Notes under the pieces: model-generated | Database searches by the model: none | What the model saw: the letters and a program-made list of their open reading frames with translations, nothing else | What the model was told of the DNA's origin: nothing | Virus record (IMG/VR): IMGVR_UViG_3300017763_003980 | DNA from: a virus | Taxonomy: Duplodnaviria > Caudoviricetes | DNA: 64,000 bases | Direction: 5' to 3' (one strand) | In this document: positions 24,793 through 60,702 of the stretch, one piece after another | Position numbering within the stretch: the first letter of the stretch is position 1 | How the letters are laid out: each line of letters starts with the position of its first letter | Translations under genes and position numbers: made by a program

Positions 24793-27462
24793 TTATTCTC
24801 CAAAATCAAATAAACTGTTAAACGTATTGTTACGCTTTGTATCTTCTAACGGATAGTTTAGCACACCAATTAAGTTGTCTAGCTTATTATCAATAATAGT
24901 TTCTGCCATTGCTGCATCGTCAAATGGCAGTTCTTTGAACCAATCAGGTATATGAAGCTCATCTGTTGGATAAGCAACACTTGTATACCCTAGTGGGTTC
25001 TGTTTTAATTTACAAACAATAACTTTCATACCGTCAACAATTTCTTGCGAATACTTGTCGCCATTCATGCGTTTAAGTGTATTCCAGTTAATGCTTGCTC
25101 GTACATGACCAGGCATATTTGCCTTGCCTTGTTTTTCTTCTAGTCGCTGATAGTGACCAATTTTATTAGCACGTTTCGGCGAACCCTTTTCCCAACCAGG
25201 ACGTTCACTAAACTCTTTACGGAATACAGTAATACGTTCTAGTACATCTTCTACTGGCTTGTCTGTTAGTACCATTAGTAATAGTTCACTTAAAAACTCT
25301 TGCATAAACACAGGTGTATCTGATCTACGCAAGTCTAAGCCCATAGCTTTTACTTTTCCAGCTTTGCCATCAACGTCAGTTCTAAACCCTTCGTTGTCAA
25401 TTACTAGTGCTGCATAACGTTTCTTAGTAATATATAATCCGCTTTCTGCAACAATTTCTCTACCAGCTGCAATAACTTCTGCACGACTTGCTGGACAGTG
25501 AAATGCTTGGGCCATAAATTTTGTAAACGTACTATCTACAGCCTCGCTTACTTGATCATAAAGCTTAATAGCATTTTCTTTTGACCATGGAATTTTACCT
25601 GAATCAATATCAGCTTTAAGTGTTGGGTATGCACTAAAATATACAGAGTCAGTGTCACCATAAATTACTGCTTCACCTGTGTGATCATACTTACCTGCAA
25701 TGACGTTGTTAGCTTCTGCACTCATATGCTTAACAATAGTTCGACCACTTAGTGTGGTTGATTGACCAATTCTTTTATCAAAAAATCTACAGCCTGGATT
25801 TAAAATAGCACCATACAAACTATTCAAGTTAATCTTCTTAACAAGTTGACGTTTGTCCCAGTATTCAATTTCAATAGAATTGCCTGCGTCTTTTGCTTTT
25901 TTAAGTTGTGCTTGTAGATCTTTACGTTCACTATACCAACGCTTTAGAAGTCCAGGAATAACACCTTCGTATTCTGTTGTAAAAATTGTGCCATTTGAAC
26001 TAAGCATCCAAGGTTTATTACTATCAAAGATTACTTTGTATATTTCAGCACCACTCATTACCTTTGATTCGCCGTTCTCAAAGTCAACTGTAAGTGCAAC
26101 ATCTTTGCGTTGCTCCATAACAGCTTCGTATTCTTCTGTACTAAAACGCCCTTCCCAACTACCTGCAAATGACTTTTTCTTTAGACCCATATCTTCTGTT
26201 ACACGAGCATCTGAAATATCAGGACGTATTTGTCCAACAATAGTTGCCGGATCCATATTCAATGCACGAATTACACTAGGATATAGACTGTTCAAGTCCA
26301 TACTTGCAATCCATTTGTGCAGTCCTTTTTTCGGAAATGCCACATACGCACCTGCGGCTTGTGTGTTTTCATCATCACGTTTTGCACGATTAGGAACTTG
26401 CATGCCTCGATGATGTGCTTCGTTGACAATGGCTTGTTCTGTAACTGCTACGGCCCCCATAGTGGTTTGTAGCAAAACAGTGTTTGCATGAGCAAGTTCG
26501 TTACTAAGATCAATAAATCTTAGTTTTTTGTCCAGCTTGTCCAGTAGTGCGGTATCTTGTATGTTGTATTCGATGAACTTTCTAAAGTCATTGTTGTACA
26601 ATGCGTCCAAAGTACCTTCATAAGGGACCTTGTTCTCGCCAACTTCGATTTCGCCAATGGCATCAAGTCTATATGTGTGTCTTTCTTCATATGTATATTT
26701 ACGATATAAATTCAAACTATCTAAATGCACTCTGCCTATTAGGTCAAAGGTTTGTGCTATTTTACCATACTTTTCATATTCACGCTTCTTAGGAAGTTGT
26801 CCCCACAAGCAAAATCTACGTGTGTCATCTTTGCTTAGTACACGAGCAGTTCTGTTTACAGTATAAGGAATATCATAACCTTCGCTGTTCCAACCTGATA
26901 AGATATCACTATCTTCAATCAGTGTCAAGAAAGTGTCAATCATGTCACCTTCTTTTTCAAACAACATTACATTGTCGATACCTTCAAGTTCTTTTTTAGC
27001 TTCGTCCATAGTAAGTGTCTTAGGAGGAACAGCCAAGCATACCATTGTTTCTAACCATTGCAAGTATACTGAGATACTTGTAATAGGCATAAAGGGATCA
27101 CTTGGATCAGCAAAGCCTCTCTCTGGATCAAAGTCAGTCTCAATATCAAAGAATGCAATGTTTAGTTTAGGTGCATCTTGATTAAGATAGTTTTCACTTA
27201 AACATTGAAATATAGGATTAATGTCGCTTTCGAATAGTTGCTTGTCTCTATTAATAGCAACTTCTTTGCGGAAGTCTTTTGTGTTTTTGCAAACAATACG
27301 ACTTAGTGGGTCACCGTATATACTTTTATACTTGCCACGTTGGTCTTTGTAATAAAAAGTATACTTTACCGGATACTCTGTAAAATGTCTTTTGCCTTCT
27401 CGACGTTCAACAGCTCTAATAATATCAGAATCTCTATCGAACATTGCGTCCACGTAACTCAA
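24793..27462 (-). CDS. family B DNA polymerase (gp43-like)
   Basis: ExoI DIETD, ExoII WNSEGYD, ExoIII YNIQD; polymerase motifs DLNSLYPS, KINLNSLYG, YGDTDS; TTG start after SD GAGGAGG. Confidence 0.96.
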   Translation of the reverse strand: MSYVDAMFDRDSDIIRAVERREGKRHFTEYPVKYTFYYKDQRGKYKSIYGDPLSRIVCKNTKDFRKEVAINRDKQLFESDINPIFQCLSENYLNQDAPKLNIAFFDIETDFDPERGFADPSDPFMPITSISVYLQWLETMVCLAVPPKTLTMDEAKKELEGIDNVMLFEKEGDMIDTFLTLIEDSDILSGWNSEGYDIPYTVNRTARVLSKDDTRRFCLWGQLPKKREYEKYGKIAQTFDLIGRVHLDSLNLYRKYTYEERHTYRLDAIGEIEVGENKVPYEGTLDALYNNDFRKFIEYNIQDTALLDKLDKKLRFIDLSNELAHANTVLLQTTMGAVAVTEQAIVNEAHHRGMQVPNRAKRDDENTQAAGAYVAFPKKGLHKWIASMDLNSLYPSVIRALNMDPATIVGQIRPDISDARVTEDMGLKKKSFAGSWEGRFSTEEYEAVMEQRKDVALTVDFENGESKVMSGAEIYKVIFDSNKPWMLSSNGTIFTTEYEGVIPGLLKRWYSERKDLQAQLKKAKDAGNSIEIEYWDKRQLVKKINLNSLYGAILNPGCRFFDKRIGQSTTLSGRTIVKHMSAEANNVIAGKYDHTGEAVIYGDTDSVYFSAYPTLKADIDSGKIPWSKENAIKLYDQVSEAVDSTFTKFMAQAFHCPASRAEVIAAGREIVAESGLYITKKRYAALVIDNEGFRTDVDGKAGKVKAMGLDLRRSDTPVFMQEFLSELLLMVLTDKPVEDVLERITVFRKEFSERPGWEKGSPKRANKIGHYQRLEEKQGKANMPGHVRASINWNTLKRMNGDKYSQEIVDGMKVIVCKLKQNPLGYTSVAYPTDELHIPDWFKELPFDDAAMAETIIDNKLDNLIGVLNYPLEDTKRNNTFNSLFDFGE

Positions 27463-28112: not shown

Positions 28113-28141
28113 ATTATACTACAGTTTTAAGGGGTTGTCAA
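28113..28141 (-). promoter_or_regulatory. sigma70-like promoter
   Basis: TTGACA-N17-TATAAT. Confidence 0.8.
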
Positions 28142-28966
28142 CTACTTTTTTGAGTTTAATGCTGCCCAGAGTTGGGACTTTATGGATTCATTAGTATCTT
28201 TATGTTTTTGTTTACGGGGAATGGTTTTTGTTTTATCTTTATGACCGCCTGCGGCACCACTTTTTCGTAGGTCATTCATATACTGAGCATTTGGATCTCT
28301 TGCTTTGATAGGTTTTTGTTTGTTCTTTTTATTTGCTGTTAATTTGTCAACAGCGCCACCAACTGCTTTGGCTGCTAATCCTCTAGCTGCCATACCTGCT
28401 ATTGCTGGTAATATTTCATCTAGCTCTTGTGATATTGCTTCAATTAAAGAATCTTGATCAAAATTTAACGATTCTTTTTGACCTTGTTGCGCCTTGTATT
28501 CATCTTTATAATCTTTAGATGTCTTAGGCTTTGGCTTGGCTGTAGGTACTTTTGGCTCTTTAGCTTTATCGTATTCGTCTTTAGCAGCCTTAAACGCTGG
28601 ACTTAGTTTATGAGGATCTTTATAGCCTGCTTTTGCTCCAGTTTTAAAAGAGCTGGCACCGGACTTGACTGCAGCTTTTGCCGCTTTAGCACCAGTTTTA
28701 ATAGTTTTCTTAAAATTATCGAACTTTTCGCCTTCATTAAGTTGAACGCCTGCTAGTTTAGCAAAATCACTTATACTATAATCTTTATCTACTGGCATAG
28801 TGCCTTCTGGAATATCAGAAACACTTTCTTCTAAATGATTTACTGTTAAATCTTCAGATCCAACGGATGCTTTTCCTGAAGCCATTTCAGTAAGCTTGCG
28901 TATATCTTCTGCAGGATCTGCAGGATCAATTTCAAATAGTTTTTGCTGGAGAGCATGATAGTCCAT
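28142..28966 (-). CDS. putative internal head protein (Lys/Ala-rich, modular)
   Basis: LAGVQLNE motif; basic segments separated by xxE sites. Confidence 0.55.
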   Translation of the reverse strand: MDYHALQQKLFEIDPADPAEDIRKLTEMASGKASVGSEDLTVNHLEESVSDIPEGTMPVDKDYSISDFAKLAGVQLNEGEKFDNFKKTIKTGAKAAKAAVKSGASSFKTGAKAGYKDPHKLSPAFKAAKDEYDKAKEPKVPTAKPKPKTSKDYKDEYKAQQGQKESLNFDQDSLIEAISQELDEILPAIAGMAARGLAAKAVGGAVDKLTANKKNKQKPIKARDPNAQYMNDLRKSGAAGGHKDKTKTIPRKQKHKDTNESIKSQLWAALNSKK

Positions 28967-29682
28967 TATCTCTTGCCTGAAGCTTTCGCGGCATGTACTG
29001 CTTTACGGTGTGCAGCTGATTTGAACTTTTTCTTACCTTCTAATTTTAAATGTAGTTCTTCTTTGTAAGATTCTTTCTTTTTTGATAACCGGTTCATAGC
29101 TTTTTTTGCTCTAGCCGCCTTGTCCATATGACCATGATAGAAATCTGACTTCATATCCCCAACCTCTTCAGGTGATTTTCCGCTTGTGTCTATTCCTGAC
29201 TTATCGAAATTTGCAAGGTCTGATTTTTTATATTGTTTCTTGAGCTTTCGCTTCATCATCACTTTACCGGCACCTTTAAATGGACCTTCGTTAGTTGATT
29301 CATTAGTTGCATTGCAATTACAATGCTTGCATGTCGGAGGACATCCACAGTCTTCTGCTTTAACATCTGCGCCACAGCATTTGTCTGAACAGTGTGTGTC
29401 TTTTTTTGCTTCGCCTACTACAACAGCTTCGTCTGCTAGTCCACTTTCCTCATAGTCCATATGATGATAAACACTACCGAGCATGTCTGCTGCTTTGGTA
29501 ATTTTGGATTGTACCCAACCTTCTAAGCCTTCTGCTTCACTTACACCTTTGAGCATGTCATGTAGCTTAATTGCATATTTGGCAGACTTATAAAGGTCAG
29601 CACGAGCCATTTGTACTTCGTGATCACGTTCGGCAATATCTGCTAATTCGCCTAATCCTTCAGTAATCTCTTTTTCTCTCAT
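28966..29682 (-). CDS. putative internal head protein (modular, with a Cys-rich segment)
   Basis: N-terminus MREKEITE; CSDKCC...CGCPPTCKHCNC; Lys-rich C-terminus. Confidence 0.55.
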   Translation of the reverse strand: MREKEITEGLGELADIAERDHEVQMARADLYKSAKYAIKLHDMLKGVSEAEGLEGWVQSKITKAADMLGSVYHHMDYEESGLADEAVVVGEAKKDTHCSDKCCGADVKAEDCGCPPTCKHCNCNATNESTNEGPFKGAGKVMMKRKLKKQYKKSDLANFDKSGIDTSGKSPEEVGDMKSDFYHGHMDKAARAKKAMNRLSKKKESYKEELHLKLEGKKKFKSAAHRKAVHAAKASGKR

Positions 29683-29707
29683 CTTACAGTTCCCGTTATT
29701 CTATATG

Positions 29708-29714
29708 TATTTAT
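29708..29714 (-). promoter_or_regulatory. T4-type late promoter
   Basis: ATAAATA. Confidence 0.6.
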
Positions 29715-29920
29715 CGTTTAATAGCTTTGCCGCCCATAACGTTGGCCTTCATATCTAGTGCGTTTTTAGCAGTTCCGTCTGCTTTAGTAGCTTGGGGAGC
29801 CTTAGGTGCACCGTACTTACCTTTTTTAGTTTTAACAGTTGGATTTGCTACTACTGCCATACTACTTGCGTTAGTGCCGCCTGCTGTTGCTTCTTCGTCT
29901 AATATTTCGTACATTTTCAT
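29711..29920 (-). CDS. putative small internal head protein
   Basis: MKMYEILDEEATAGG then Lys/Ala-rich; ATAAATA at 29926-29932, 5 nt before the ATG. Confidence 0.6.
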   Translation of the reverse strand: MKMYEILDEEATAGGTNASSMAVVANPTVKTKKGKYGAPKAPQATKADGTAKNALDMKANVMGGKAIKR

Positions 29921-29937
29921 AATAATATTTATCCTTA

Positions 29938-30228
29938 TTATTTTCTTTTGCCACGAAATCTACGTACATGACCTGTGTAGAATATCATAGTATACCAAGG
30001 ATTGTGCCTATACATTTTACGAGTATATTCCCAAGCTACATTATCTTGGTCTACCCATACTACATGATAACCTCTCCATCTACGTGAAGGATACCATTCA
30101 ATACTACCGCCGTCTTTAATTAATTTTTCTAGTGTCCAAAAGTAACAGTTGTTCTTGCTAGTAAATAGTCTCATAGGCCAAAACCAAAAAAAGACTGCCA
30201 TAAGCAGTCCTGTGTTTAGTAACTTCAT
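29938..30228 (-). CDS. hypothetical protein
   Basis: 96 aa, aromatic-rich, hydrophobic N-terminus. Confidence 0.6.
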   Translation of the reverse strand: MKLLNTGLLMAVFFWFWPMRLFTSKNNCYFWTLEKLIKDGGSIEWYPSRRWRGYHVVWVDQDNVAWEYTRKMYRHNPWYTMIFYTGHVRRFRGKRK

Positions 30229-30956
30229 GATAAAAATTTATTCTCTTTAAGATACTGATATATCTTAAAATGTCCTTCTCTATTTGGATGGTGTCCATCT
30301 GGCCACATTATAGACTCTTTAGTATATAGTTCCCATAAATTATTTTGTGCATATATTCTTTTTACAGCTTTTTTGTTTGTGTTGTGTTTACTGATAGTAC
30401 TAAGATGATGTACAAACATTACATCGTGTTGCTTACTATTAGGTACAAGTAATTCTAATATACTAGGTATTGCTATTTTAAGTTGTGTGTCTTTTAGTAA
30501 ATCACTTGTTACTTTAGATAATCCTCCTATTAAATATACCTGACCAAGTATTTTATTGTTTATACGAGATATATCAGCAATAAATTCACGTAAATTATTG
30601 TTATGCATCTCAACATAATCTTGGTACGAGTAAGCTTTATCCCATATTTTGCCTCTCTCAATATTACGAAGAGTATCGGTTACTATAATAAAGGTTGCAT
30701 CATATGGTTTATATGGTTTAGAATCATCTTCAACTTCTTTATCTAGTAAGTGTTTCTTTCCTTGCATTCTTATTTGATAATGTATAGTTTTGAGACTAGC
30801 CCCAGGTACAGAAACATTTTTTACCTCATGATTATCTTGTGTTAGATATTCTTCTAAACCTTTATGGGCAACAGCATCATGTCTTCCTTCTAATAGACGA
30901 TTATATTCTTTCCATTCGCCGCAGCCCCAACTATCCCCTGCTAACAATATTCTCAT
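30225..30956 (-). CDS. SGNH/GDSL hydrolase-like protein
   Basis: N-terminal AGDSW, NVSVPGAS, C-terminal DGHHP (DxxHP). Confidence 0.7.
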   Translation of the reverse strand: MRILLAGDSWGCGEWKEYNRLLEGRHDAVAHKGLEEYLTQDNHEVKNVSVPGASLKTIHYQIRMQGKKHLLDKEVEDDSKPYKPYDATFIIVTDTLRNIERGKIWDKAYSYQDYVEMHNNNLREFIADISRINNKILGQVYLIGGLSKVTSDLLKDTQLKIAIPSILELLVPNSKQHDVMFVHHLSTISKHNTNKKAVKRIYAQNNLWELYTKESIMWPDGHHPNREGHFKIYQYLKENKFLS

Positions 30957-30967
30957 ACTAGTAATTA

Positions 30968-32941
30968 TTATTTTTTAGAACGACCGCTCTTCATGTTGGC
31001 ACACCAGTGATACATTTTACGCTTTTCACCACTTGCGCCTTTGGCACGTTTGCGTAGATCAGTTACTGAGCCTTTACAACTAGCACCAGACTTTTTAACT
31101 CTACCTGGACGACTTTTGCCTTTTTTCTTACCGTCAGCAAAGTTTTCAGTCATGCCTAGTTCTGCTCTTTTAATCCAATCACGTTCGTATTCTACTGGAA
31201 TAAAGTCTTCGAGTTCTTCGTCTTTATATTCTGAACCCATCCAATCAAATACCATAGCAGGATCAAACTGCATTTTTTCACTTGCTTTGTAGTATGCTAC
31301 GTAAGGATCTAAGCCGTTTTTAATTAACTTCATAGCAAGTAATCTAATGTCTAGATATTCATCTTCAATGTCTGTAAATGCACGACTTGTCTTGCCTGTA
31401 GTATTAGTTTGTTGATACTTGTCAATTGCTTTACTAGTATCCTTGCTCATATTGCCTAATGCAACCGCTGTGTCTTTAGACATGCCAACAGGACTGTTTT
31501 CTTTTAGCTCTGGATGATATTTCCAGTGAACATTTTTTGCATCTTTACTAACTGACTTACCGTCAACTTGAACTTCAATAGGATATTTCTTTTTAGGATC
31601 ATTATACCAATAGTACGAATCATAACTGCCATCAGCATTACTACGTATAACAAGTCCTCTTGTATATTCGTCATCGTCTGCTTGCAAAACTATATTTTTA
31701 CCATTTGGTAATTTTAAATCTGCATCAAATTTAACTTTTTTTATATCACCACTATGTGCATCTTCGTCTACGTGTGCATCATCACCCTTACTACCGGCGT
31801 CTTGTGTTTTGTAGCCTGCTTTTTTAAGGCCTTTCTTAAGGTGTTTCTTTTCTTTTTCGCCACCGAAAGGAACAACCATTACATCAGGTTCATCTCTGTT
31901 GTCGCTCTTTTTTGCGTTAGATAGATTAGAAATTGTTTTGCCTACACGTAGAAAATCGTATGCTGTGTCAGCTTTTGTAAGAAAAGTATTTTTTGGGTTT
32001 TTAAAATGATGTGCTTCAAAAACTTCTAGTATTTGTTCTAGTGTATAAGGTAACCTAGCAACATCTGCTTCTTTAATACCCAGCATTTGTAGTGCAGTAT
32101 ATCTATGATGTCCGTTAACAATTCTATTTTTGCTATCAACTATAATTGGATTGTACTCGCCTGCAACAATATTGTCTACTTGCTTTTTAAAGTTTTCTAC
32201 TATACGTTCCTCTTGTACTGGTATAAGTTTTTTTACGTTTACTGTTTCAAGAGTATGTTTGATATTTTCAAGTTGCTTGTTTTTAATTTGTGGTAGTTCA
32301 TTGCGATTGTAATTTGCTTTAAGTTTTTTTGTTTTCTTTTTAGGTTTTTTATCTAATGATAGCTTTTTTACATTCATGTATTCGCCACCAACAGGTACAT
32401 CCTTTGTTGCATTTTGTTTTGTTACAATGCCAACACCGTATTCTTCAATACTGTCTTTTACTTTATTTTTTACATTTTTAGCTTTACCACGTCTGTCCGG
32501 ATTAGGATCATTCTTTCTTTTTCTTTTCACAGCGTTACTTATAGCTTTTTTACCACCACTTGATCTAAGACTTGCTGCCTTAGACTTGCTTAAACATTTT
32601 GGTTTGCCTTCACCTGGTTTAGAATCTCCGCATTTTCCAATGCGTTCGCCTTTTGAATTGTAACGATCCCACCCGCCGCCGCCAGCGCCGCCTTTTTTAC
32701 CTTTGCCAAACCATGCACGTAGATCTTCTTTTACTAGGATTCCATCGTTGTCCACTGTATGACCATCAGGAATTGGTTTGCATTTTTGATCTGTATTACA
32801 AAAGTATTCGCCTTCTTTGCATTGTGCTTCTGCTTCATTCTTTACACAATTAGGCACACGTTTGCCAAACATGGTTTTCATGCCCTTTTTCTTGTAGCCC
32901 TTCCAGCAACGTGTTCCTTCTTTAAAATCGTCGAACTTCAT
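30968..32941 (-). CDS. modular Lys-rich putative internal head polyprotein with a ParB/Srx-like domain
   Basis: 657 aa; short basic or Cys-paired modules separated by xxE; PIIVDSKNRIVNGHHRYTAL is ParB-like. Confidence 0.6.
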   Translation of the reverse strand: MKFDDFKEGTRCWKGYKKKGMKTMFGKRVPNCVKNEAEAQCKEGEYFCNTDQKCKPIPDGHTVDNDGILVKEDLRAWFGKGKKGGAGGGGWDRYNSKGERIGKCGDSKPGEGKPKCLSKSKAASLRSSGGKKAISNAVKRKRKNDPNPDRRGKAKNVKNKVKDSIEEYGVGIVTKQNATKDVPVGGEYMNVKKLSLDKKPKKKTKKLKANYNRNELPQIKNKQLENIKHTLETVNVKKLIPVQEERIVENFKKQVDNIVAGEYNPIIVDSKNRIVNGHHRYTALQMLGIKEADVARLPYTLEQILEVFEAHHFKNPKNTFLTKADTAYDFLRVGKTISNLSNAKKSDNRDEPDVMVVPFGGEKEKKHLKKGLKKAGYKTQDAGSKGDDAHVDEDAHSGDIKKVKFDADLKLPNGKNIVLQADDDEYTRGLVIRSNADGSYDSYYWYNDPKKKYPIEVQVDGKSVSKDAKNVHWKYHPELKENSPVGMSKDTAVALGNMSKDTSKAIDKYQQTNTTGKTSRAFTDIEDEYLDIRLLAMKLIKNGLDPYVAYYKASEKMQFDPAMVFDWMGSEYKDEELEDFIPVEYERDWIKRAELGMTENFADGKKKGKSRPGRVKKSGASCKGSVTDLRKRAKGASGEKRKMYHWCANMKSGRSKK

Positions 32942-33132
32942 TTTTTTGACTTATTGCCCCAATTCTTTGCGCCTACTTTTCGACAGCGTACTAATGCTCC
33001 ACTTGCATATGCACTTGGCCAAACTTTGTAGCGACTTTTAACTTTGTTATAGCAAGCATCTTTTTCACCTGCAGCTTCGTCAAATTCTGCTTCTGTCATA
33101 AGTTGTTGTTCTGTTACTTCATTTACTTTCAT
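32938..33132 (-). CDS. putative small internal head protein
   Basis: MKVNEVTE...DEA then CYNKVKSRYKVWPSAYASGALVRCRK. Confidence 0.65.
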   Translation of the reverse strand: MKVNEVTEQQLMTEAEFDEAAGEKDACYNKVKSRYKVWPSAYASGALVRCRKVGAKNWGNKSKK

Positions 33133-33133
33133 T

Positions 33134-33379
33134 TCACCACACCTTCTTAATATGATATTCTATTGGTTTCAAAAATTTTAATTCGTTTCTATTATTATCT
33201 AAATCTTTAAAAATAATGTGCTTTGGTGTTACCTTTACAAGTTTCTTTGCTTTGTATTTAACCTGTTTAGTAGATTCAGTTCTAGTTCCGTCAGCATGAA
33301 CCAATGTATCATTAGATACTGTTAAAATTAGTTCGTATTCTTCTTTAGTAACTCTTTGCCACCAAGTTTTTAAGCTCAT
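33134..33379 (-). CDS. hypothetical protein
   Basis: 81-aa ORF, coupled to its neighbours. Confidence 0.6.
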   Translation of the reverse strand: MSLKTWWQRVTKEEYELILTVSNDTLVHADGTRTESTKQVKYKAKKLVKVTPKHIIFKDLDNNRNELKFLKPIEYHIKKVW

Positions 33380-33585
33380 TACTTCCTTCCTCTAAAAGTT
33401 GCTCCTGTCATATAAGGTTTACTAAACCAAAGCTCAAACCATTCCTTATCTCCAGGCTTTATATTGTTTTTCTTTTCCTTCTTCTTTAGCTCGTTAGCAG
33501 TTTTGCTCATGTTTTCTAGTGTATATTCTGTATAGCCTTTGTATTCATTTACACCTGCTAGCTCTTTAAGTCGTTCGATATTCAT
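33379..33585 (-). CDS. putative small internal head protein
   Basis: MNIERLKELAGVNE; NIKPGDKEWFELWF. Confidence 0.6.
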   Translation of the reverse strand: MNIERLKELAGVNEYKGYTEYTLENMSKTANELKKKEKKNNIKPGDKEWFELWFSKPYMTGATFRGRK

Positions 33586-34598
33586 TTTTTCTTCTTTAAA
33601 CGTTTTCTAAGTTTATCACTTATATCTGCTGGATGATCTGGATTGTCTTTGTCTAATGAGTAATATCCTGGTCCCCTAAGTCCCTTTAATACACGCCCAA
33701 TACCTTCTTGAATATCTTCATCGCTAATAGTGTAGTATCTATTATTACGTGTTTTAATTTTCTTACCACTTAGTTGTTTTAGTATGTAGCTTAACTTTTC
33801 TACATCATCCTCTTCACGAGCAAAACGTTCTATTTCTTGTTGTAAGTGATTAACTAACGCACTTTTGTCTAAAACAAGATCGCCTTCGTTAACATTATCT
33901 TCTTTAGCAAGTTTTGTTGCTGTTGCATACATTACTGCATCCGCATCTTTGCCATAACGCTTTTTGAATCCGCCTTTAGCTTTCTTCATTCCTTTGACAA
34001 TACGTTCTTTTTCTTTTTCTTCGCCTTTACTAAGTTCACGCTCGGTAAGTCCCATACCCTTACGTACTGCGTCATATAATGCATTAGCTAATGACTGATC
34101 GACTACACCCTGTTTAAATGTATCAAAGTCATCTGACATCGCAGACGCCCGCATTTTGCTAGCACTCATACCTTCAGCACCATCTGCGTCAGGATCACGT
34201 TCGCCTGCACTAACAACACTAATATTATTAAAGTTATAGTCCTTGCCGTTGTATTTGGTAATAAGATTTTTAAAGTCTTCAACTCTATCACTACCTGCTA
34301 CATATGTAATACTTGTGTAGCCCATTGATTCTAGCTTTTGTAGTGCTTTTATAATTGTGTTTACTTCACTATCTCCAACAGTTACATTAGGAAAAAACTT
34401 TGTTGCAAATTTTAATTTAGTTTGAAAATCTAAAGGATCTGTTTTAGGTTTTTGTGTGTGGGTTATAAAAAGGAAAGGATCGCCAGGCTGAGATGCTACA
34501 ACGTCAACAAGTTTTTTATGTCCAATAGTAGGAGGATTCATTCTTCCGAATGCTAGTGATGCAGCTTTTTCAGCTTCGTATAATTCCCTGAGTAGCAT
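33582..34598 (-). CDS. cytidyltransferase-like nucleotidyltransferase with C-terminal basic modules
   Basis: FGRMNPPTIGH (HxGH-type), VAGSDR, VSAGERDPD, MSASKMR. Confidence 0.8.
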   Translation of the reverse strand: MLLRELYEAEKAASLAFGRMNPPTIGHKKLVDVVASQPGDPFLFITHTQKPKTDPLDFQTKLKFATKFFPNVTVGDSEVNTIIKALQKLESMGYTSITYVAGSDRVEDFKNLITKYNGKDYNFNNISVVSAGERDPDADGAEGMSASKMRASAMSDDFDTFKQGVVDQSLANALYDAVRKGMGLTERELSKGEEKEKERIVKGMKKAKGGFKKRYGKDADAVMYATATKLAKEDNVNEGDLVLDKSALVNHLQQEIERFAREEDDVEKLSYILKQLSGKKIKTRNNRYYTISDEDIQEGIGRVLKGLRGPGYYSLDKDNPDHPADISDKLRKRLKKKK

Positions 34599-34928
34599 TT
34601 AGTATGCTCCGCATTCAATCATTTTCATTTCTTCGCCATATACCTTGTTAATGCACTCATCTCGGTCTTCTAGCTTAAAAATTTTTTCTCTTTTACCTAG
34701 TTTAAATTTATTGCAATATAACTCCATAGCTTCGTCAACTATAGGTCCTAATAACTTTTGTGGTGCAATACTTTGTTGCCTACCATAAGCATCTTTCATT
34801 TGCATAATGCAAGGAAACATTTTCTTTCTATAAAACATAGGATCATTACGCATAAAGATAGAAAGATCGTCTACCACATCAAATGGCATACGAGCTTCTT
34901 CTGGTTTTGTAAACTCGTCTATACGCAT
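34599..34928 (-). CDS. hypothetical protein
   Basis: 109 aa, N-terminus MRIDEF. Confidence 0.65.
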   Translation of the reverse strand: MRIDEFTKPEEARMPFDVVDDLSIFMRNDPMFYRKKMFPCIMQMKDAYGRQQSIAPQKLLGPIVDEAMELYCNKFKLGKREKIFKLEDRDECINKVYGEEMKMIECGAY

Positions 34929-34929
34929 T

Positions 34930-35523
34930 TTACCACTTCCTACATGACCAGTAACGTGCCTTAGTGCGTGGACCTGGATTGTCGCAGTTATGTCTTGCTC
35001 TAAAACTTCTACGTGCTTTAGGATTATTTTTTCTAATACGCATGGACTTGCCTTTTACACTTGATCCACCATGGCCAAAGTTAACTTTTTTAACATTACC
35101 AGTCTTTGGATCCTTAACGTAAACTTTAAACTTTTTTACGTCACCGGCCATTGGCTTTCCCAATTTTACTTTACGTCCTTGATACTCTGCTTCGTCCATT
35201 GGATCGTCATCTTCGTTATACCAAAGCATACCATATTCTTCATAAAACTCGTCATCGTCATCATAAGTTTCTTCGTCAATTGGGTCTGTCATATCTGTAC
35301 TAATTTCGATATCAAAGTCTTCGAAGCCTGATTCAAACATATAGTTTGCTAAACGATTAGCATACTCTGTTGCTTCATCTTCGTCAAGTAATCTGTCTAA
35401 AGGTATTTCAATTACTGTTGCACCTTGCTCTGATTCATACACCTCGTTATTAGGAAGTATAGACTCGTCTAGCTTAGTTATACTCTCGTCTTTTTCCATT
35501 ACTATTCTTACAAAGTGTTCCAT
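34930..35523 (-). CDS. two-module protein: acidic N-terminal domain and basic C-terminal module
   Basis: Acidic region, then DEAE|YQGRKVKLGKP...RARHNC...YWSC. Confidence 0.65.
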   Translation of the reverse strand: MEHFVRIVMEKDESITKLDESILPNNEVYESEQGATVIEIPLDRLLDEDEATEYANRLANYMFESGFEDFDIEISTDMTDPIDEETYDDDDEFYEEYGMLWYNEDDDPMDEAEYQGRKVKLGKPMAGDVKKFKVYVKDPKTGNVKKVNFGHGGSSVKGKSMRIRKNNPKARRSFRARHNCDNPGPRTKARYWSCRKW

Positions 35524-35532
35524 ATTATTTCC

Positions 35533-35874
35533 TCAATGATTCATTACTATTGAATTTACAGTTCCGTCAGTATATGTTATTTGGGCTTTTAGCCATACAT
35601 AATTTCCGGTAAAATTACTAATAGTACTTCCTGTACTATTTGATAGTGTTATACTGTCAACTTGAAACCAATCACCGTCTACAGGTGTAGTAGTTAATGT
35701 AGCTTCTATTTTCATTGTTCCAGTAAATCCAGTATAATTATATTGGACAGTATGCAAGCCGTCGCTACGACCGTAATATCCGTCTCCTTTGAAATGAGAG
35801 CTTTCTACTGCTACAGAAGTACTATCTCCTGGGTGGGTGTTTGCTGATAAAATTATTTCACTATTACTGCTCAT
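35533..35874 (-). CDS. hypothetical, probably virion, beta-rich protein
   Basis: Start refined to the ATG at 35874, 5 nt after the late promoter ATAAATA (35880-35886). Confidence 0.65.
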   Translation of the reverse strand: MSSNSEIILSANTHPGDSTSVAVESSHFKGDGYYGRSDGLHTVQYNYTGFTGTMKIEATLTTTPVDGDWFQVDSITLSNSTGSTISNFTGNYVWLKAQITYTDGTVNSIVMNH

Positions 35875-35878
35875 ATAA

Positions 35879-36580
35879 CTATTTATCAATAGTTGGAGGC
35901 ATATGTAATAATTTGTATACACCGCGTATAGCATGTCCTATTAACATATGTACAATTGATAGCACCTTTTCATCACGTACATGTAAGTAAAACCCTCCCA
36001 TATGTAGATTATCGTCAATACATTGCAATGCTTTATCACCTATCCTAGACTTATCTCTATTTGCACGTAACCAATTAGCAAAGTCAGGTGATATCTTTTC
36101 ATCTTTAAGCATTATTCGAAATGGAAACTCTGGAGGGCGATCAACTATAATCGTATCATGTTCTAATAAATGTTTTCCTCTAGAATTTGGTTTCCATATA
36201 TTTTCTAAAGTATATTGAATACGATTAGTAATGTTATCCAATAAATTATCATCGTTAGTATAGATAGATAAACTAGTTCCGGTTTCGACTCTAACTTTAA
36301 AATTTCCGTTTTGATTCTTTAATATTAAGTATAAGTTCTTAGCATCTAAGTAATGATTCATAGGTACTTCACGTTCTGTTCTAAAGAATGTTTGTACTAA
36401 TGGCTGACCATTACGATAGTTACTAGCAAATTCGTCTAGCTTATCTCTTGTATAAGAAAGATTTTTACTTTTTTGAAGTTCGGCTCTAAAAATATGATTA
36501 AGTTCATTATTTAAGGATATTTTATAAAGATACTTTTTATAAAAAAGTTTTTTTGTTTCATGCAGATTCGGTGATTTCAT
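35879..36580 (-). CDS. hypothetical protein
   Basis: 233-aa ORF overlapping the clpA end. Confidence 0.7.
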   Translation of the reverse strand: MKSPNLHETKKLFYKKYLYKISLNNELNHIFRAELQKSKNLSYTRDKLDEFASNYRNGQPLVQTFFRTEREVPMNHYLDAKNLYLILKNQNGNFKVRVETGTSLSIYTNDDNLLDNITNRIQYTLENIWKPNSRGKHLLEHDTIIVDRPPEFPFRIMLKDEKISPDFANWLRANRDKSRIGDKALQCIDDNLHMGGFYLHVRDEKVLSIVHMLIGHAIRGVYKLLHMPPTIDK

Positions 36581-38804
36581 CTTCTACACAATCCAACTGT
36601 ATCTCTTTATCACGATAATCGATAATGAGTGAACCGCCATTTTTCAGTTTACCAAATAACATTTCTCTTGCTAGTTTACGTTTGATATCTTTATCGATTA
36701 CTCTTTGTAAAGGTCTTGCACCCATTTTAGGATCAAATCCTTTATCTACTAAGTAATCTAATGTATCGTCTGTAATAGTTAGTGCAATATCTTTATCTTT
36801 AACCATGTCCTTTAGCTCAACAAGGAATTTGCCAACAATTTTCATCATTATCTCTTTGCTTAGTTTAGCAAAAGTAATTGTACCATCAAGTCTATTTCTA
36901 AATTCTGGTGCAAAGAACTGTTTAAGATCAGTGTCTTCATACTGTTGTTCTAGTTCTCTTGTAAAGCCAATTGAATTTTGTTCAGCTTTATGTGAACCTA
37001 AGTTAGTTGTTAAGATAAGTGTACAATTACGTGCATCAGCTACTTTACCATTGGATCCGGTTACTTTACCATTATCCATTAGTTGCAATAAAATTTGAGA
37101 AACATCCGGGTGTGCTTTTTCAATTTCGTCAAGTAGCAGTACACAGTTAGGTGATTCCTGTAATTTAGTAATTAGGATGCCGTTATTCTCTTCATAACCT
37201 ACATATCCTGGAGGCGACCCAATAAGTTTTGCTACACTATGTCGCTCCTGGTACTCACTCATATCAAAACGTATAAGTTTAACACCAAGATTTTTTGCAA
37301 GTTGTTTTGCAGTTTCAGTTTTACCTGTGCCTGTCGGTCCCATGAATACAAACGATCCAATAGGCTTATCGTCTGCTTTCAGACCTGCTTGATTTACAAG
37401 AACTTTGTCTACAATTTGTTCAATAGCTTCGTCTTGACCATAAACAACCCCTTTAAGATTCTTCTCTAAGTTTGCAAGGCTGTCTGTTTCTTTTTCGGCA
37501 ATACGCTCTGTTGGCATATCAACTATTTTAGCAAGTTCAAATTCAATATTAGTAGCTTCAACAATTTTTTCTTTGTTTTTACTATCAGTTACTTTGAATC
37601 TTGAACACGCAATGTCAATTAGATCTATTGCTTTATCAGGAAGTTTTTTATCGCTTTGATATTTTACACTTAGTTTTATGGCTGTATCAATTGCATCTTC
37701 TGTAATAGTAGTGCCATGAAACTCTTCATAATATTTTTTAATGCCTAGTAAGATTTCTTTAGTAGTTTGATTAGACGGCTCACCTATAGTTACTCTTTGA
37801 AATCTTCTCATTAATGCACGATCAGATTCAAAATATTTTCTGTATTCTTCCCATGTAGTTGAAGCAACTACTTTTAAGTCTCCCTTAGTAAGAGCAGGCT
37901 TTAGCATGTTTGCTAAATCATTTGAATTTCCACCGCCTGCAGCGCCAGCACCATTCATCATATGTGCTTCATCAACAAACATAATAGTTTTACCTTGTTT
38001 TGTTAATGCTGATAGTACTAGTTTGAATCGCTCTTCAAAATCACCTCTATACTTTGATCCTGCAAGCATAGCTCCAATGTCAAGGTTATATACTTTGTAC
38101 TCTTTTAAAAAGCTAGGAACATTATCGTTTTCGATATTATATGCAAGTCCTTCAGCAATAGCAGTTTTACCAACACCAGGATCACCTACCATTAGCACAT
38201 TATTTTTTTGTCTACGTCCTAATGCTAATGCTAAACTTTCTAATTCAGTTGAGCGACCTATAATAGGGTCAATTTTTTGTTTTTTTACTTCTTCGTTTAA
38301 ATTAGTAGTAAATGCACGTAGAGCACGTTTTGCTTCGCTAGAAACTTCGTCCTCCTCTAACAATCCTTCTTCTATTTCATTATGTAAAAATTCTCCAAAC
38401 TTGGATTTATCAATGCCGCCTTTTTCTAGATAAAATACTGAAATAGATTTTCTTTCATTAAGCATACTCAATACTACGTCAGTTAATTCAATAGTATTCC
38501 TGCCTGCAAATAAAACTTGTGTAAATGCTCTATTAAGAACTCTTTCTACAGTATGCGTTTTTTTAGGTTTAACTTTATCATTATCAGTAATAATTTCAGT
38601 CAAATTATTTTTAAGATAGTGTTCAAGATTAGATTTGATATATTCTATGTCTGCTCCAAACATGCCTACTATATTACAGAACTTTTCTTCACAAAAAATA
38701 GCATAAAGCAGATGCTCTAAAGTAACATACTCATGCATAAGCTTTTTAGCATCATTAATTGCTTTATCAAATACTAACTGTAACTCTTTACTTGGTTCGA
38801 CCAT
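36558..38804 (-). CDS. clpA: ClpA-type Hsp100 AAA+ chaperone
   Basis: Clp N-domain (VTLEHLL), NBD1 GDPGVGKT/FVDEAH, NBD2 GPTGTGKT/LLDEIEKAH, IGF loop, GARP; no ClpB middle domain apparent. Confidence 0.9.
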   Translation of the reverse strand: MVEPSKELQLVFDKAINDAKKLMHEYVTLEHLLYAIFCEEKFCNIVGMFGADIEYIKSNLEHYLKNNLTEIITDNDKVKPKKTHTVERVLNRAFTQVLFAGRNTIELTDVVLSMLNERKSISVFYLEKGGIDKSKFGEFLHNEIEEGLLEEDEVSSEAKRALRAFTTNLNEEVKKQKIDPIIGRSTELESLALALGRRQKNNVLMVGDPGVGKTAIAEGLAYNIENDNVPSFLKEYKVYNLDIGAMLAGSKYRGDFEERFKLVLSALTKQGKTIMFVDEAHMMNGAGAAGGGNSNDLANMLKPALTKGDLKVVASTTWEEYRKYFESDRALMRRFQRVTIGEPSNQTTKEILLGIKKYYEEFHGTTITEDAIDTAIKLSVKYQSDKKLPDKAIDLIDIACSRFKVTDSKNKEKIVEATNIEFELAKIVDMPTERIAEKETDSLANLEKNLKGVVYGQDEAIEQIVDKVLVNQAGLKADDKPIGSFVFMGPTGTGKTETAKQLAKNLGVKLIRFDMSEYQERHSVAKLIGSPPGYVGYEENNGILITKLQESPNCVLLLDEIEKAHPDVSQILLQLMDNGKVTGSNGKVADARNCTLILTTNLGSHKAEQNSIGFTRELEQQYEDTDLKQFFAPEFRNRLDGTITFAKLSKEIMMKIVGKFLVELKDMVKDKDIALTITDDTLDYLVDKGFDPKMGARPLQRVIDKDIKRKLAREMLFGKLKNGGSLIIDYRDKEIQLDCVEDEITESA

Positions 38805-38805
38805 A

Positions 38806-39660
38806 CTATTTTATCTCATCTCTTAATTGTTGTATTTTATTTAACAGACTTTCGTCATTAATTTCAGGTGTTTTAACGTCAATAATAACGTGTATATTTC
38901 CCCTGCGTCTTGTATTAATATCGGGTATACCATACTCTGGAATACTGAATCTTTGTCCTGGGTTTGTGCCTTTTGGTATAGTTAATTTAACGTTTCTATT
39001 GTCTAATGTGTTTACTATTATAACACATCCTAGCAATAAGTCAAACAAATTTATGGTTTTTCTTGTAATTAAATCATTATTTCTTCGTTCCCAACCAGAT
39101 ACAGGCTTTACTTGTACAACAACATGTAAATTTCCTCTTCTTAGTTCTCTGTGCCTATCATCACCTAATCCTTCATATTGGATAGTATCACCATCTCTTG
39201 CACCAGGAGGAACATCTATGTTTATAGTTTCAATTCTGCCAGAACCTAGTTGTATTTGAGCGACTAAGCTTTTGCCTAATACTACATCTCGCAAATCTAT
39301 TTGTGCTGCGATACGCATATCTTGATTTCTAGGTTGCTGCCTTTGTCCGAATGGACTATTGCCTGAAAACATATCAGCAAACGGTGTACCAGCAAATGGG
39401 TTGCCACCTGCAAAGTCGTTTGAATTAAAATTAAAACCCTGTGGACCAGCTTGCTGAGGATCAGCAGTTCCGTATTGATCGTACATTTGACGCTTTGATG
39501 GATCTTTTAATGTACTATATGCTTCGTTAATTTTTTTGAACGTATCTTCGTTACCACCCCGATCAGGGTGATGTTGCATGCTAGCTTTTTTGTATGCTTT
39601 TTTAAGCTCTGCGTCAGATGCTTGTTTGCTTACGCCAAGTATATTATAAAAGTCGCTCAT
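38806..39660 (-). CDS. dnaJ: DnaJ-class co-chaperone (type II, no zinc finger)
   Basis: J domain with HPD, G/F-rich linker, C-terminal domain; no CxxCxGxG repeats. Confidence 0.9.
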   Translation of the reverse strand: MSDFYNILGVSKQASDAELKKAYKKASMQHHPDRGGNEDTFKKINEAYSTLKDPSKRQMYDQYGTADPQQAGPQGFNFNSNDFAGGNPFAGTPFADMFSGNSPFGQRQQPRNQDMRIAAQIDLRDVVLGKSLVAQIQLGSGRIETINIDVPPGARDGDTIQYEGLGDDRHRELRRGNLHVVVQVKPVSGWERRNNDLITRKTINLFDLLLGCVIIVNTLDNRNVKLTIPKGTNPGQRFSIPEYGIPDINTRRRGNIHVIIDVKTPEINDESLLNKIQQLRDEIK

Positions 39661-53838: not shown

Positions 53839-54423
53839 TTAAGTATATTGGCCCAAGTATTGTGCAAACACTGTAACACCGGTATTGTATGTCCAAAATT
53901 TCACAACAACTGGATTTTCAGAACTATCTATAGTCAATGTAGGCGTACCTGCTTGCCTAGGATAGTTTGTATCATACTTAATTGGACCAGCTGTATTAGT
54001 AAAGAAACAAGTTTTTGCAGTATCATTGCCTAAGAAGTGAGCAGTCATTTCAGCATACCCTTGCGTATCGGGCCAATCTGCAAGAGCAAAAGAAATGCTT
54101 GCTGTACCTACTGGTAAATTTACATTCATAGTTTGATAATGTCCATTTAAAAAACTAATGTTTTGTCCTGTAAGGACTGTTCCTACATTATGGTATTGAT
54201 GTGTTGTCAATTGCATATTTGCAGCACTAATATTTGTACCATTAAAATTGTTAGATGCATTTAGTTTTGCAGTGGTACTCTGTAATGTTGATATTTCTGA
54301 ACCTGCTGTAGATAATCCTGTTTTGATTATTGAAAAATTATCACGAAATCCTTGTGTGTCGTTATCAACGCCTGCAACAGGATATGTTGCATCAATTGTA
54401 TCACTTATAATATTACTGGCCAT
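53839..54423 (-). CDS. putative virion structural protein
   Basis: YPVAGVDNDTQGFRDNF then coiled coil; late promoter ATAAATA at 54443-54449. Confidence 0.65.
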   Translation of the reverse strand: MASNIISDTIDATYPVAGVDNDTQGFRDNFSIIKTGLSTAGSEISTLQSTTAKLNASNNFNGTNISAANMQLTTHQYHNVGTVLTGQNISFLNGHYQTMNVNLPVGTASISFALADWPDTQGYAEMTAHFLGNDTAKTCFFTNTAGPIKYDTNYPRQAGTPTLTIDSSENPVVVKFWTYNTGVTVFAQYLGQYT

Positions 54424-54454
54424 TTTATTTCCTCTACTGTATTATTTATCGCTA

Positions 54455-59869: not shown

Positions 59870-59904
59870 ATTTAATTCCTTACGAAGTATTTATCGGAAT
59901 TATT

Positions 59905-60702
59905 TTATACAGCAATAGCGCCAAAGTCTACAATCGTGTTTGTTGGTGAAGTTATAGTACCCATATCTTGATCAGTTTCATTTACTATAAAATCAATCAT
60001 GTTATTAACTGTTGCGTTAATACCACCAAAGTCCATATTTTCAAAATGATTAACAAGTACAGCTGGGTCTTTACCATTTATTAATCCAGTTACATTACCT
60101 GTTAAATTACCTGTAAATCCTGTTGATGTAATAGCACCAGCATTTGCAATATTAAATCCGCCTGCGTCTAAGTTACCGCCTAGTACAGGAGTTGTATCAT
60201 CTGATAATTCAGATGGATCTGATTTGTTTGCAAGCTCTACCCAAACACCGCCGTGACTATAATATGCTCCGCCGGCACTATGAACATGCACAAACATTCC
60301 GTGATACGTACTTGCACTAGGCAAGTCTGCTAACGTAGCATACACATTATTATATTTTATCCTAGCATCAGCAAAGTCATATTCTTTTGTAACGTAATTA
60401 TCGCCTGTTACGGCAGTCTGTGTAAGGTCATAAACTTTATCGTTAGCAATAGTAATGTTGTCGTCTGTGGCAGTAAGTGTAAGGCCTGCGCCTCCTATTA
60501 TTTTCTTAAACTTTAAATCGTAATTAACTTTTTCTTTAAACAATCCTTCGCCAGTAGCACCAAGATTACTTACCGTAGTTTGCTCATCATCACGTAGATC
60601 TAATTCATTAAAGTTAGCATTTACTTTTACAAATGCTTCTCGCAAATCATCACCAGTTCCGTCATTTGCTGTATTACCTAAATTTACTAGTTGTATTGCC
60701 AT
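59905..60702 (-). CDS. baseplate/tail-fibre connector-like protein (gp9/gp10-type N-terminus)
   Basis: NLGNTANDGTGDDLREAFVKVNANFNEL; late promoter ATAAATA at 60722-60728. Confidence 0.75.
   Translation of the reverse strand: MAIQLVNLGNTANDGTGDDLREAFVKVNANFNELDLRDDEQTTVSNLGATGEGLFKEKVNYDLKFKKIIGGAGLTLTATDDNITIANDKVYDLTQTAVTGDNYVTKEYDFADARIKYNNVYATLADLPSASTYHGMFVHVHSAGGAYYSHGGVWVELANKSDPSELSDDTTPVLGGNLDAGGFNIANAGAITSTGFTGNLTGNVTGLINGKDPAVLVNHFENMDFGGINATVNNMIDFIVNETDQDMGTITSPTNTIVDFGAIAV

Follow-up and report, generated by a model that had tools for sequence, protein, structure and literature searches.

The protease gp21 of bacteriophage T4 cuts after Glu in L/I-x-E. The T4 internal proteins IPI, IPII and IPIII, together with Alt, are unrelated and mostly basic proteins that carry a short N-terminal tag ending in hydrophobic-x-Glu (PMC9026906, PMC3012670). 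Targeting depends on residues 4 and 7 of this tag and processing on residues 8 and 10, and the prohead protease recognises a short motif and cleaves C-terminal to its Glu (PMC9026906). Many head proteins of giant phages are processed after Glu and possess redundant propeptide sites; within the head these proteins accompany the DNA, and they reach the host cell (PMC9026906). In phiKZ, 201phi2-1 and SPN3US, gp21-related proteases cut the inner-body or ejection proteins after Glu, in S/A-x-E. In cyanophages, NMNAT-like proteins have repeatedly been found in virions, and the two reports mention no loading mechanism, targeting tag or processing (PMC9602691, PMC10665884). Here we analyse a stretch of 64,000 nucleotides from a virus of the Caudoviricetes (IMG/VR record IMGVR_UViG_3300017763_003980; hereafter the window), in which positions 28142-35523 hold an array of 12 genes. 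An earlier note on this DNA had taken the array for a set of capsid-targeted, protease-processed internal proteins. We propose, with reasonable confidence and by analogy with T4, that the segment running from 35874 to 28142 is a late-transcribed, evolutionarily plastic locus for head cargo. It would be a form of the T4 internal-protein system in which the tag is shorter and the architecture shuffled and polyprotein-like.

The array consists of 12 tightly packed, co-oriented open reading frames (ORFs), which in the order of transcription encode proteins of 197, 109, 338, 68, 81, 64, 657, 243, 96, 69, 238 and 274 amino acids (aa) and lie, like all genes of the window, on the minus strand (Table 1). 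The isoelectric point is 8.7-10.2 in ten of the 12, the net charge of the 657-aa protein is +42, and paired cysteines are present in several modules. No pairwise similarity was found among the array proteins by all-against-all BLAST, which rules out that they are paralogues spreading one N-terminus by duplication. The common N-terminus was thus not inherited in this way, and can be regarded as a tag shared by unrelated proteins.

Leaders of 8-14 residues head the 338-, 68-, 64-, 657-, 69- and 238-aa ORFs, and a partial leader heads the 109-aa ORF. Each of the seven leaders quoted in the earlier note does stand at the start of a minus-strand ORF. The pattern ^M...[ED][VFLIM] is present at the start of 6 of the 12 array ORFs vs 2 of the 73 remaining ORFs of the window (Fisher p 5e-5). 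In 36 syntenic marine phage contigs that contain both flanking anchors, a broader leader pattern heads 120 of 415 array ORFs and 6 of 574 ORFs outside (odds ratio 38, p 2e-42), counts that are not independent, as orthologues recur. The consensus of the tag is M-[KR]-hydrophobic-x-[ED]-hydrophobic-x-E. The leader is retained in orthologues while the neighbouring sequence drifts. With a slash for the candidate cut, about 30 orthologues of the 338-aa protein start with M[LFR]LRELFE/A, the 238-aa family with MR[DE]KEI[STK]E/GLG, the 68-aa family with MDIERLKQLAGVNE/FKGY, the 69-aa family with MKINELLNE, MRIRELITE or MKIKEILE, and the 109-aa family with MRIDEF, MKINEF, MKLFEL or MLLKELF.

In T4, IPII and IPIII both begin with MKTYQEFIAE/A (read from NC_000866). 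The prevalent tag of the array is two residues shorter, with hydrophobic residues at positions 3 and 6 and Glu at position 8 of 8, in contrast to the T4 positions 4, 7, 8 and 10. Cyanophage tags, unlike those of the array, are of the 10-residue T4 type, and the exact T4 spacing is found in Syn9 gp184 (MKKFSAFLSE), S-CREM2 gp154 (MKNFSSFLTE) and S-SCSM1 ORF91 (MKSFLQFLKE). One homologue of the 197-aa protein also has this spacing (MKTFQEYLKE). A full-text literature search for capsid-targeting sequences in cyanophages or marine phages returned only T4 reviews.

The second line of evidence comes from the interior of the proteins. We scanned IMG/VR with the 657-aa protein, which yielded 80 related loci, and then searched these loci exhaustively with profiles of eleven modules. 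Modules A (CWKGYKKKG), C (EDLRAWFGKG), D (KDACY..PSAYASG), E (NFADGKKKGKSRP), G (ATAGATS), H (GLGELA..DHEVQMAR) and J stand either directly behind a leader or internally, behind other modules; module D, for instance, is internal in 15 of 23 relatives. At six unrelated modules the N-terminal boundary reads hydrophobic-x-Glu, with Glu at P1 in 82-100% and L, I, V, M or F at P3 in 70-97% of the contexts, in which orthologues are included. The background frequency of hydrophobic-x-Glu in the array proteins is 2.2% per position. P2 varies at these boundaries, and acidic residues are frequent further towards the N-terminus. A hydrophobic residue stands at P4 in 53% of contexts at module G, in 11% at module I and in only 5-17% at the remaining four modules (C, E, F and H). 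The pattern is sharpest for module E, for which all 64 distinct upstream contexts have Glu at P1 and 88% have a hydrophobic P3. At module F, both P3 (hydrophobic) and P1 (Glu) reach 97% in 40 contexts, and module H follows [ILVF]-x-E at N-termini as well as inside longer proteins. The junction LAG[VI]NE/[FY]KGY is kept in 28 orthologues of the 68-aa protein (P3 V/I in 89%, P1 Glu in 82%). The earlier note had pointed to an internally recurring LAGV..NE, and this is indeed seen: the 274-aa ORF contains FAKLAGVQLNE/G at 28733-28765, a junction kept at about residue 65 in 20 orthologues, and array ORFs show a 12-fold enrichment of hydrophobic-x-x-LAG[IVL]-x(1-3)-E, which occasionally serves as a linker before other modules. 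The note had also placed Lys/Arg-rich or Cys-paired modules behind xxE sites. Its observation is confirmed, at a level far beyond chance. Pfam searches with whole array proteins and single modules gave nothing at cut-off; the only matches were weak ones to DUF5872 (module D) and CTP_transf_like.

The 197-aa protein, which matches phrog_7595, has a different layout. Its acidic first 111 residues contain nine candidate hydrophobic-x-Glu sites before the invariant junction [MILV]DE/AEYQGRKV (here MDE/AEYQGRKV), behind which the basic module F follows. These sites resemble the redundant propeptide sites of giant phages, from which they differ in that P3 is hydrophobic, as in T4, and not Ser or Ala. 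Residues 1-75 (35299-35523) are predicted to form a small ferredoxin-like alpha/beta domain, with a predicted local distance difference test (pLDDT) score of about 80. Foldseek with the 197-aa model, in which module F is of low confidence, found nothing significant, only weak matches to S6 permutants and PII-like proteins and a lower-ranking one to a subtilisin prodomain. The N-terminal domain may act as a pro-domain for the basic module behind it. Module F also occurs on its own in the Pelagibacter siphophage Kolga, whose gp56 (L095:2501-2740) is a stand-alone 79-aa version starting with MAKYQGR, without a leader; the annotation 'head morphogenesis protein' is carried by a gene not far away, at a distance of a few genes. 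The modules thus predate the tag system and are more widespread than it.

A protease of the expected type is encoded in the lineage, as in T4. Peptidase_S77, the family of T4 gp21, was found above the Pfam cut-off in three of five long array-carrying contigs, the other two being 23%-complete fragments, and gp23-type capsid proteins adjoin it in related contigs. The family-B DNA polymerase of the window (24793-27462) shares 41-50% identity with its counterparts in jumbo T4-like phages, among them Sinorhizobium phage Phosso, Agrobacterium phage Atu_ph07, Vibrio phage 2.275.O and Yersinia phage fHe-Yen9-04. The source, an uncultured marine giant phage, is T4-like and not phiKZ-like as judged from polymerase, capsid protein and protease, and is not known to have an inner body. 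The related IMG/VR contigs measure 91-210 kb at 23-60% completeness, which suggests genomes of about 350 kb or larger.

The capsid proteins of these relatives also bear on the 69-aa protein of the array. Their N-termini read ...KYL[AS]E-[AQS]-ATAGATSAGNVATL, and the 69-aa family reads leader-E-x-ATAGATSAGNIATV. The segment ATAGATSAGNIATV differs at just one of 14 positions (13 of 14 identical) from the stretch that residues 43-56 form in the major capsid protein, directly after YL[AS]E-x (related contigs L090:1345-2532, L091 and L092). The alignment of T4 gp23* with the capsid segment does not begin until residue 14 of gp23*, and ahead of the conserved segment there are several Glu residues that are candidates for the maturation site of the capsid protein. 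In any case, the 69-aa protein copies capsid-protein sequence around a probable processing site of the capsid protein. A tblastn search with the 69-aa protein against cultured phages gave no match.

The array is a fixed address with variable content. Ten of its 12 families recur in the 80 related loci, typically seven to nine of them together, and the order dnaJ, clpA, two small genes, array, 86-aa gene, DNA polymerase is common to more than 30 contigs. Between these flanks, the array genes vary. In one contig the nucleotidyltransferase is fused with modules of the 657-aa type into a 641-aa protein, and in another a 399-aa protein joins pieces of the 238-, 274-, 64- and 69-aa families. Genes of the 657-aa type range from about 100 to 997 aa. 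Such fusions and fissions between contigs occur at hydrophobic-x-Glu junctions. A variable locus away from the head operon is also where T4 keeps its internal-protein genes; the many multi-module members with internal junction sites, and the shuffling of modules between genes, set the array apart from T4. Directly upstream, at 36558-39660 (minus strand), lie genes for a ClpA-type double AAA+ unfoldase (full-length, 748 aa, with Clp_N, AAA_2 and ClpB_D2-small) and a DnaJ (284 aa, with J domain and C-terminal domain), both of which are found at this place in more than 25 related contigs.

Unlike the T4 internal proteins, the cargo would include a nucleotidyltransferase and a ParB-like domain. 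The 338-aa protein matches phrog_3041 (E 7e-54) and, below the cut-off, Pfam CTP_transf_like, and holds PPTIGH and MSASKMR, which correspond to the signature motifs (T/H)xGH and SxxxxR. AlphaFold2 places residues 12-185 in one domain (pLDDT >90) and models the leader as a short separate helix. The nearest folds are PPAT and NaMN adenylyltransferases, with template modelling scores of 0.65-0.71 by target length at about 15% identity; a PDB sequence search with the protein gave no match. The 338-aa ORF is thus predicted to be a HIGH-signature nucleotidyltransferase of the PPAT/NMNAT/cytidylyltransferase superfamily. In the 657-aa protein, the ParB-like segment spans residues 228-318 approximately (31988-32260), contains NGHHRYTAL and gives PHROG ParB-like matches (E 6e-9 to 4e-3) and no Pfam match.

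Homologues of these proteins have been detected in cyanophage virions. The cyanophages S-SCSM1 and S-CREM2 encode a homologous nucleotidyltransferase (37-42% identity over the domain) in a cluster that lies, as here, among replication and nucleotide-metabolism genes and whose proteins are found in caesium chloride (CsCl)-purified virions (PMC9602691, PMC10665884). In S-CREM2, virion mass spectrometry identified the cytidylyltransferase gp154, its neighbours gp155, gp156 and gp160, and gp136, encoded between the terminase genes (PMC10665884, Table 3). We found modules A and D in gp160 by BLAST and profile search, with a C-terminus 76% identical to the 64-aa ORF; for module C there was a weak BLAST match (E 0.007), not confirmed by profile search. 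In S-SCSM1, ORF89-93, 95 and 97, including the NMNAT-like ORF91, are annotated as virion proteins and form a cluster among replication genes (PMC9602691). A term search for peptide-level data in the S-SCSM1 supplement found none. Compared with these clusters, the array is larger and sits at another, fixed position, between the ClpA-like gene and the DNA polymerase. In T4-like cyanophages, moreover, the genes for the small and large terminase subunits flank one for a multi-module protein related to the 657-aa and 64-aa proteins, as in Bellamy gp123 (L003:2710-4566) and S-CREM2 gp136 and gp137 (L085:802-3022); part of Bellamy gp123 we take, by eye, to be a DUF192-like segment.

Transcription of the locus appears to be late. 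The earlier note had reported late promoters, and this is partly upheld: the canonical TATAAATA is absent from 28142-35523 and occurs only three times in the whole window, and what the region has are conserved GATAAATA motifs (Table 1). The word ATAAATA is 3.5-fold depleted in the window (11 sites vs 39 expected), and all but one of the 11 copies lie on the coding strand, where they precede ORF starts by 5-32 nucleotides. Depletion and placement are as expected of a late-promoter word. The motif [GTC]ATAAATA-N5-ATG precedes the orthologue of the 113-aa ORF in 29 of 37 relatives; ATAAATA lies 17-50 nucleotides upstream in 33 of 37 orthologues of the 238-aa ORF vs 12% of background ORFs, and within 60 nucleotides of the start in 10 of 36 orthologues of the 69-aa ORF. 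It is probable, from position and conservation of the motif at 35880..35887, that it starts a transcription unit running into the array. The unit would then begin one gene upstream of the array range given in the earlier note, at 35874, with the 113-aa ORF; within that range the leader-bearing set stands, and the 243- and 96-aa ORFs are not members. No strong sigma-70 promoter was found inside the block, which looks like one to three late units. The perfect sigma-70-type promoter behind the array precedes an 86-aa gene resembling a PHROG 'transcriptional regulator' family, followed by the DNA polymerase, and begins the unit that follows, which is probably early.

Table 1. Positions of array genes, their leaders and promoter-like motifs in the window. 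Domain, junction and promoter assignments are predictions.
Feature	Position	Strand	Leader (position)	Remarks
GATAAATA late-promoter-like motif	35880..35887	minus		5 nucleotides upstream of ATG at 35874
113-aa ORF, MSSNSEIIL...	35533..35874	minus		probable first gene of late unit; syntenic in 36 contigs
197-aa protein	34930..35523	minus		acidic residues 1-111, invariant junction, basic module F (34933-35190, 86 residues)
109-aa ORF	34599..34928	minus	MRIDEF	targeting-like half of tag
338-aa protein	33582..34598	minus	MLLRELYE (34575-34598)	HIGH-type domain, residues 12-185 (34044-34565); helical basic tail
68-aa protein	33379..33585	minus	MNIERLKELAGVNE (33544-33585)	leader, then YKGY module; junction conserved in 28 orthologues
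81-aa basic protein	33134..33379	minus	none	in 6 related loci; occasional array member
64-aa protein	32938..33132	minus	MKVNEVTE (33109-33132)	leader, then module D (KDACY..KVWPSAYASG); phrog_727, E 8.6e-25
657-aa modular protein	30968..32941	minus	MKFDDFKE (32918-32941)	leader, modules A, B and C, ParB-like domain, C-terminal module E after GMTE (30971-31144)
243-aa ORF and 96-aa membrane ORF	29938..30956	minus	none	local insertions, outside leader-bearing set
GATAAATA late-promoter-like motif	29926..29933	minus		5 nucleotides upstream of 69-aa ORF
69-aa protein	29711..29920	minus	MKMYEILDEE (29891-29920)	leader, then ATAGG...; capsid-like segment
GATAAATA late-promoter-like motif	29708..29715	minus		25 nucleotides upstream of 238-aa ORF
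238-aa protein	28966..29682	minus	MREKEITE (29659-29682)	leader, helical module H, Cys-rich stretch, basic tail
274-aa basic protein	28142..28966	minus		conserved N-terminus MDYHALQ; last array gene; syntenic
Sigma-70-type promoter TTGACA-17-TATAAT	28113..28141	minus		12/12 matches; directly after last stop codon of array

These observations can be joined in a scheme modelled on T4. The short amphipathic tag would be an 8-residue variant of the T4 capsid-targeting sequence MKTYQEFIAE, and would dock each protein to the scaffolding core during prohead assembly. Cleavage after Glu in hydrophobic-x-Glu, by a prohead protease of the gp21 type, would follow; it would remove the tag and split the multi-module proteins at their junctions. 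The products left in the filled head would be small Lys-rich or Cys-bearing modules, the HIGH-type nucleotidyltransferase and the ParB-like domain, and delivery into the cell along with the DNA would be the expected consequence. We infer core docking, cleavage, copy number, ejection and the roles of the mature parts from this analogy. Anti-defence or DNA-condensing roles of the modules, which the earlier note had suggested for some of them, are conjecture.

Several points weigh against this proposal. Protein-level detection concerns cyanophage homologues and not this phage or lineage, where the cluster is known from sequence and the cleavage sites are predicted. Both cyanophage papers, moreover, caution that abundant non-structural proteins may co-purify with virions (PMC9602691, PMC10665884). 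The protease and head genes come from related contigs. When T4 IPII and IPIII were compared by BLASTP with the array proteins and with every ORF of the related loci, no match had an E value under 1. The length and spacing of the 8-residue tag are unlike those of the tested T4 tag, and the 109-aa family lacks a consistent hydrophobic-x-Glu. Hydrophobic-x-Glu is possibly part of each module's fold, and the orthologous contexts in which it was counted are not independent. In the 197-aa protein, the N-terminal MEHFVRIVME is a beta-strand of the folded domain in the AlphaFold2 model (pLDDT about 80). This N-terminus is therefore probably not a free tag, its T4-like spacing would be coincidental, and only the internal junction of the 197-aa protein counts as evidence. 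The interpretation in the earlier note is partly supported: its core, capsid-targeting-like leaders and Glu cut sites on a library of small basic modules, is backed by independent comparative evidence, with amendments that include the 8-residue form of the tag and the predicted strand in the 197-aa protein.

The most serious alternative, which we nevertheless regard as unlikely, is that the proteins are ordinary intracellular late or late-persisting products, such as nucleic-acid-binding factors and nucleotide enzymes, that are never packaged. The virion detection of homologues would then be carry-over, as raised in both proteome papers. The shared N-terminus would be a helix start or a run of translation-favourable AAA/AUU/GAA-rich codons, and hydrophobic-x-Glu would be the way in which modules begin. 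The array genes are tightly coupled and have weak ribosome-binding sites, so start-proximal codons could matter, but a translation effect leaves unexplained why unrelated proteins have hydrophobic residues at 3 and 6 and Glu at 8. Nor does it account for the recurrence of the motif at junctions inside the proteins, or for its rarity among the 574 other ORFs of the same contigs. The position of the block among replication genes, from the ClpA-like gene to the DNA polymerase, and the want of any functional clue from Pfam would suit intracellular proteins, yet the promoter motifs are late-type, and S-SCSM1 virions held seven neighbouring cluster products while most of the surrounding replication proteins went undetected.

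Less probable again is that the proteins belong to the virion without being internal or ejected. They would then have a structural or decorative role at the capsid and remain attached to the shell, cleaved or not. In the 69-aa family, 13 of 14 residues repeat the beginning of the conserved capsid body, as if it used a capsid-lattice contact, and the 113-aa ORF has a weak likeness to phrog_13657 (E 9.5e-14; phrog_14467, E 2e-6), with the PHROG family named as a virion structural protein. A modular homologue in cyanophages is encoded between the terminase genes. A HIGH nucleotidyltransferase and a ParB-like domain are, on the other hand, unlikely shell parts, the strong positive charge fits contact with DNA, and the extreme plasticity of the locus is unlike that of structural genes. 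We give least credence to the tag being an address for another machine, either the upstream ClpA-like unfoldase and DnaJ (for controlled unfolding or degradation) or a modifying enzyme: the order dnaJ-clpA-two small genes-array is conserved and the ClpA and DnaJ identities are firm, but tagged cyanophage and Melnitz homologues were found in virions, the chaperone genes precede the late-promoter motif and so belong to another unit, the tag ends in a protease motif in a lineage with a gp21-type protease, and no modifying enzyme is syntenic with the array.

If head cargo is what the array encodes, a bolder interpretation is possible, and we offer it tentatively. The array could be the fixed 'cargo locus' of a widespread marine jumbo-phage lineage, in which tags and protease-site linkers act as universal connectors. 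Any module, such as a basic DNA-binding peptide, a nucleotidyltransferase or a ParB-like domain, could then be fused, split and swapped between genes and yet be loaded and released as a separate mature protein, a combinatorial polyprotein delivery of a pre-made kit along with the DNA. One member would copy the N-terminal segment of the capsid protein, and ClpA and DnaJ might, at a guess, unfold or refold the head cargo. If the main proposal holds, the proteins injected by an abundant group of uncultured ocean phages could be recognised directly in the sequence by their tag and hydrophobic-x-Glu junctions. The proposal would likewise provide a mechanism for the recurrent, unexplained NMNAT-like enzymes and their neighbours of no known function in cyanophage virion proteomes. 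The predictions are exact and cheap, for example semi-specific peptides starting after the predicted Glu. Finally, the locus would represent a natural modular protein-loading system, comparable with the T4 packaging tag used in phage engineering.

A few further features of the window deserve mention. Several ATAAATA sites precede large, probably structural ORFs at 53839-60702, one of 1804 aa. At 35874-35887 and 29920-29933, GATAAATA lies only 5 nucleotides before the ATG and leaves no space for a ribosome-binding site, which suggests leaderless or near-leaderless late mRNAs for the 113-aa and 69-aa genes. Short pieces of 28142-35523 are similar to DNA of marine cyanophages and pelagiphages. 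A protein atlas search with the 238-aa protein returned only unnamed viral clusters at chance-level scores. The 243-aa and 96-aa ORFs have no leader, no homologue in the 80 related loci and no Pfam or PHROG match; as they have no counterpart in any related locus, we consider them local insertions. The 243-aa ORF has SGNH/GDSL-hydrolase-like motifs, GDSWG near its start and DGHHPN near its end.

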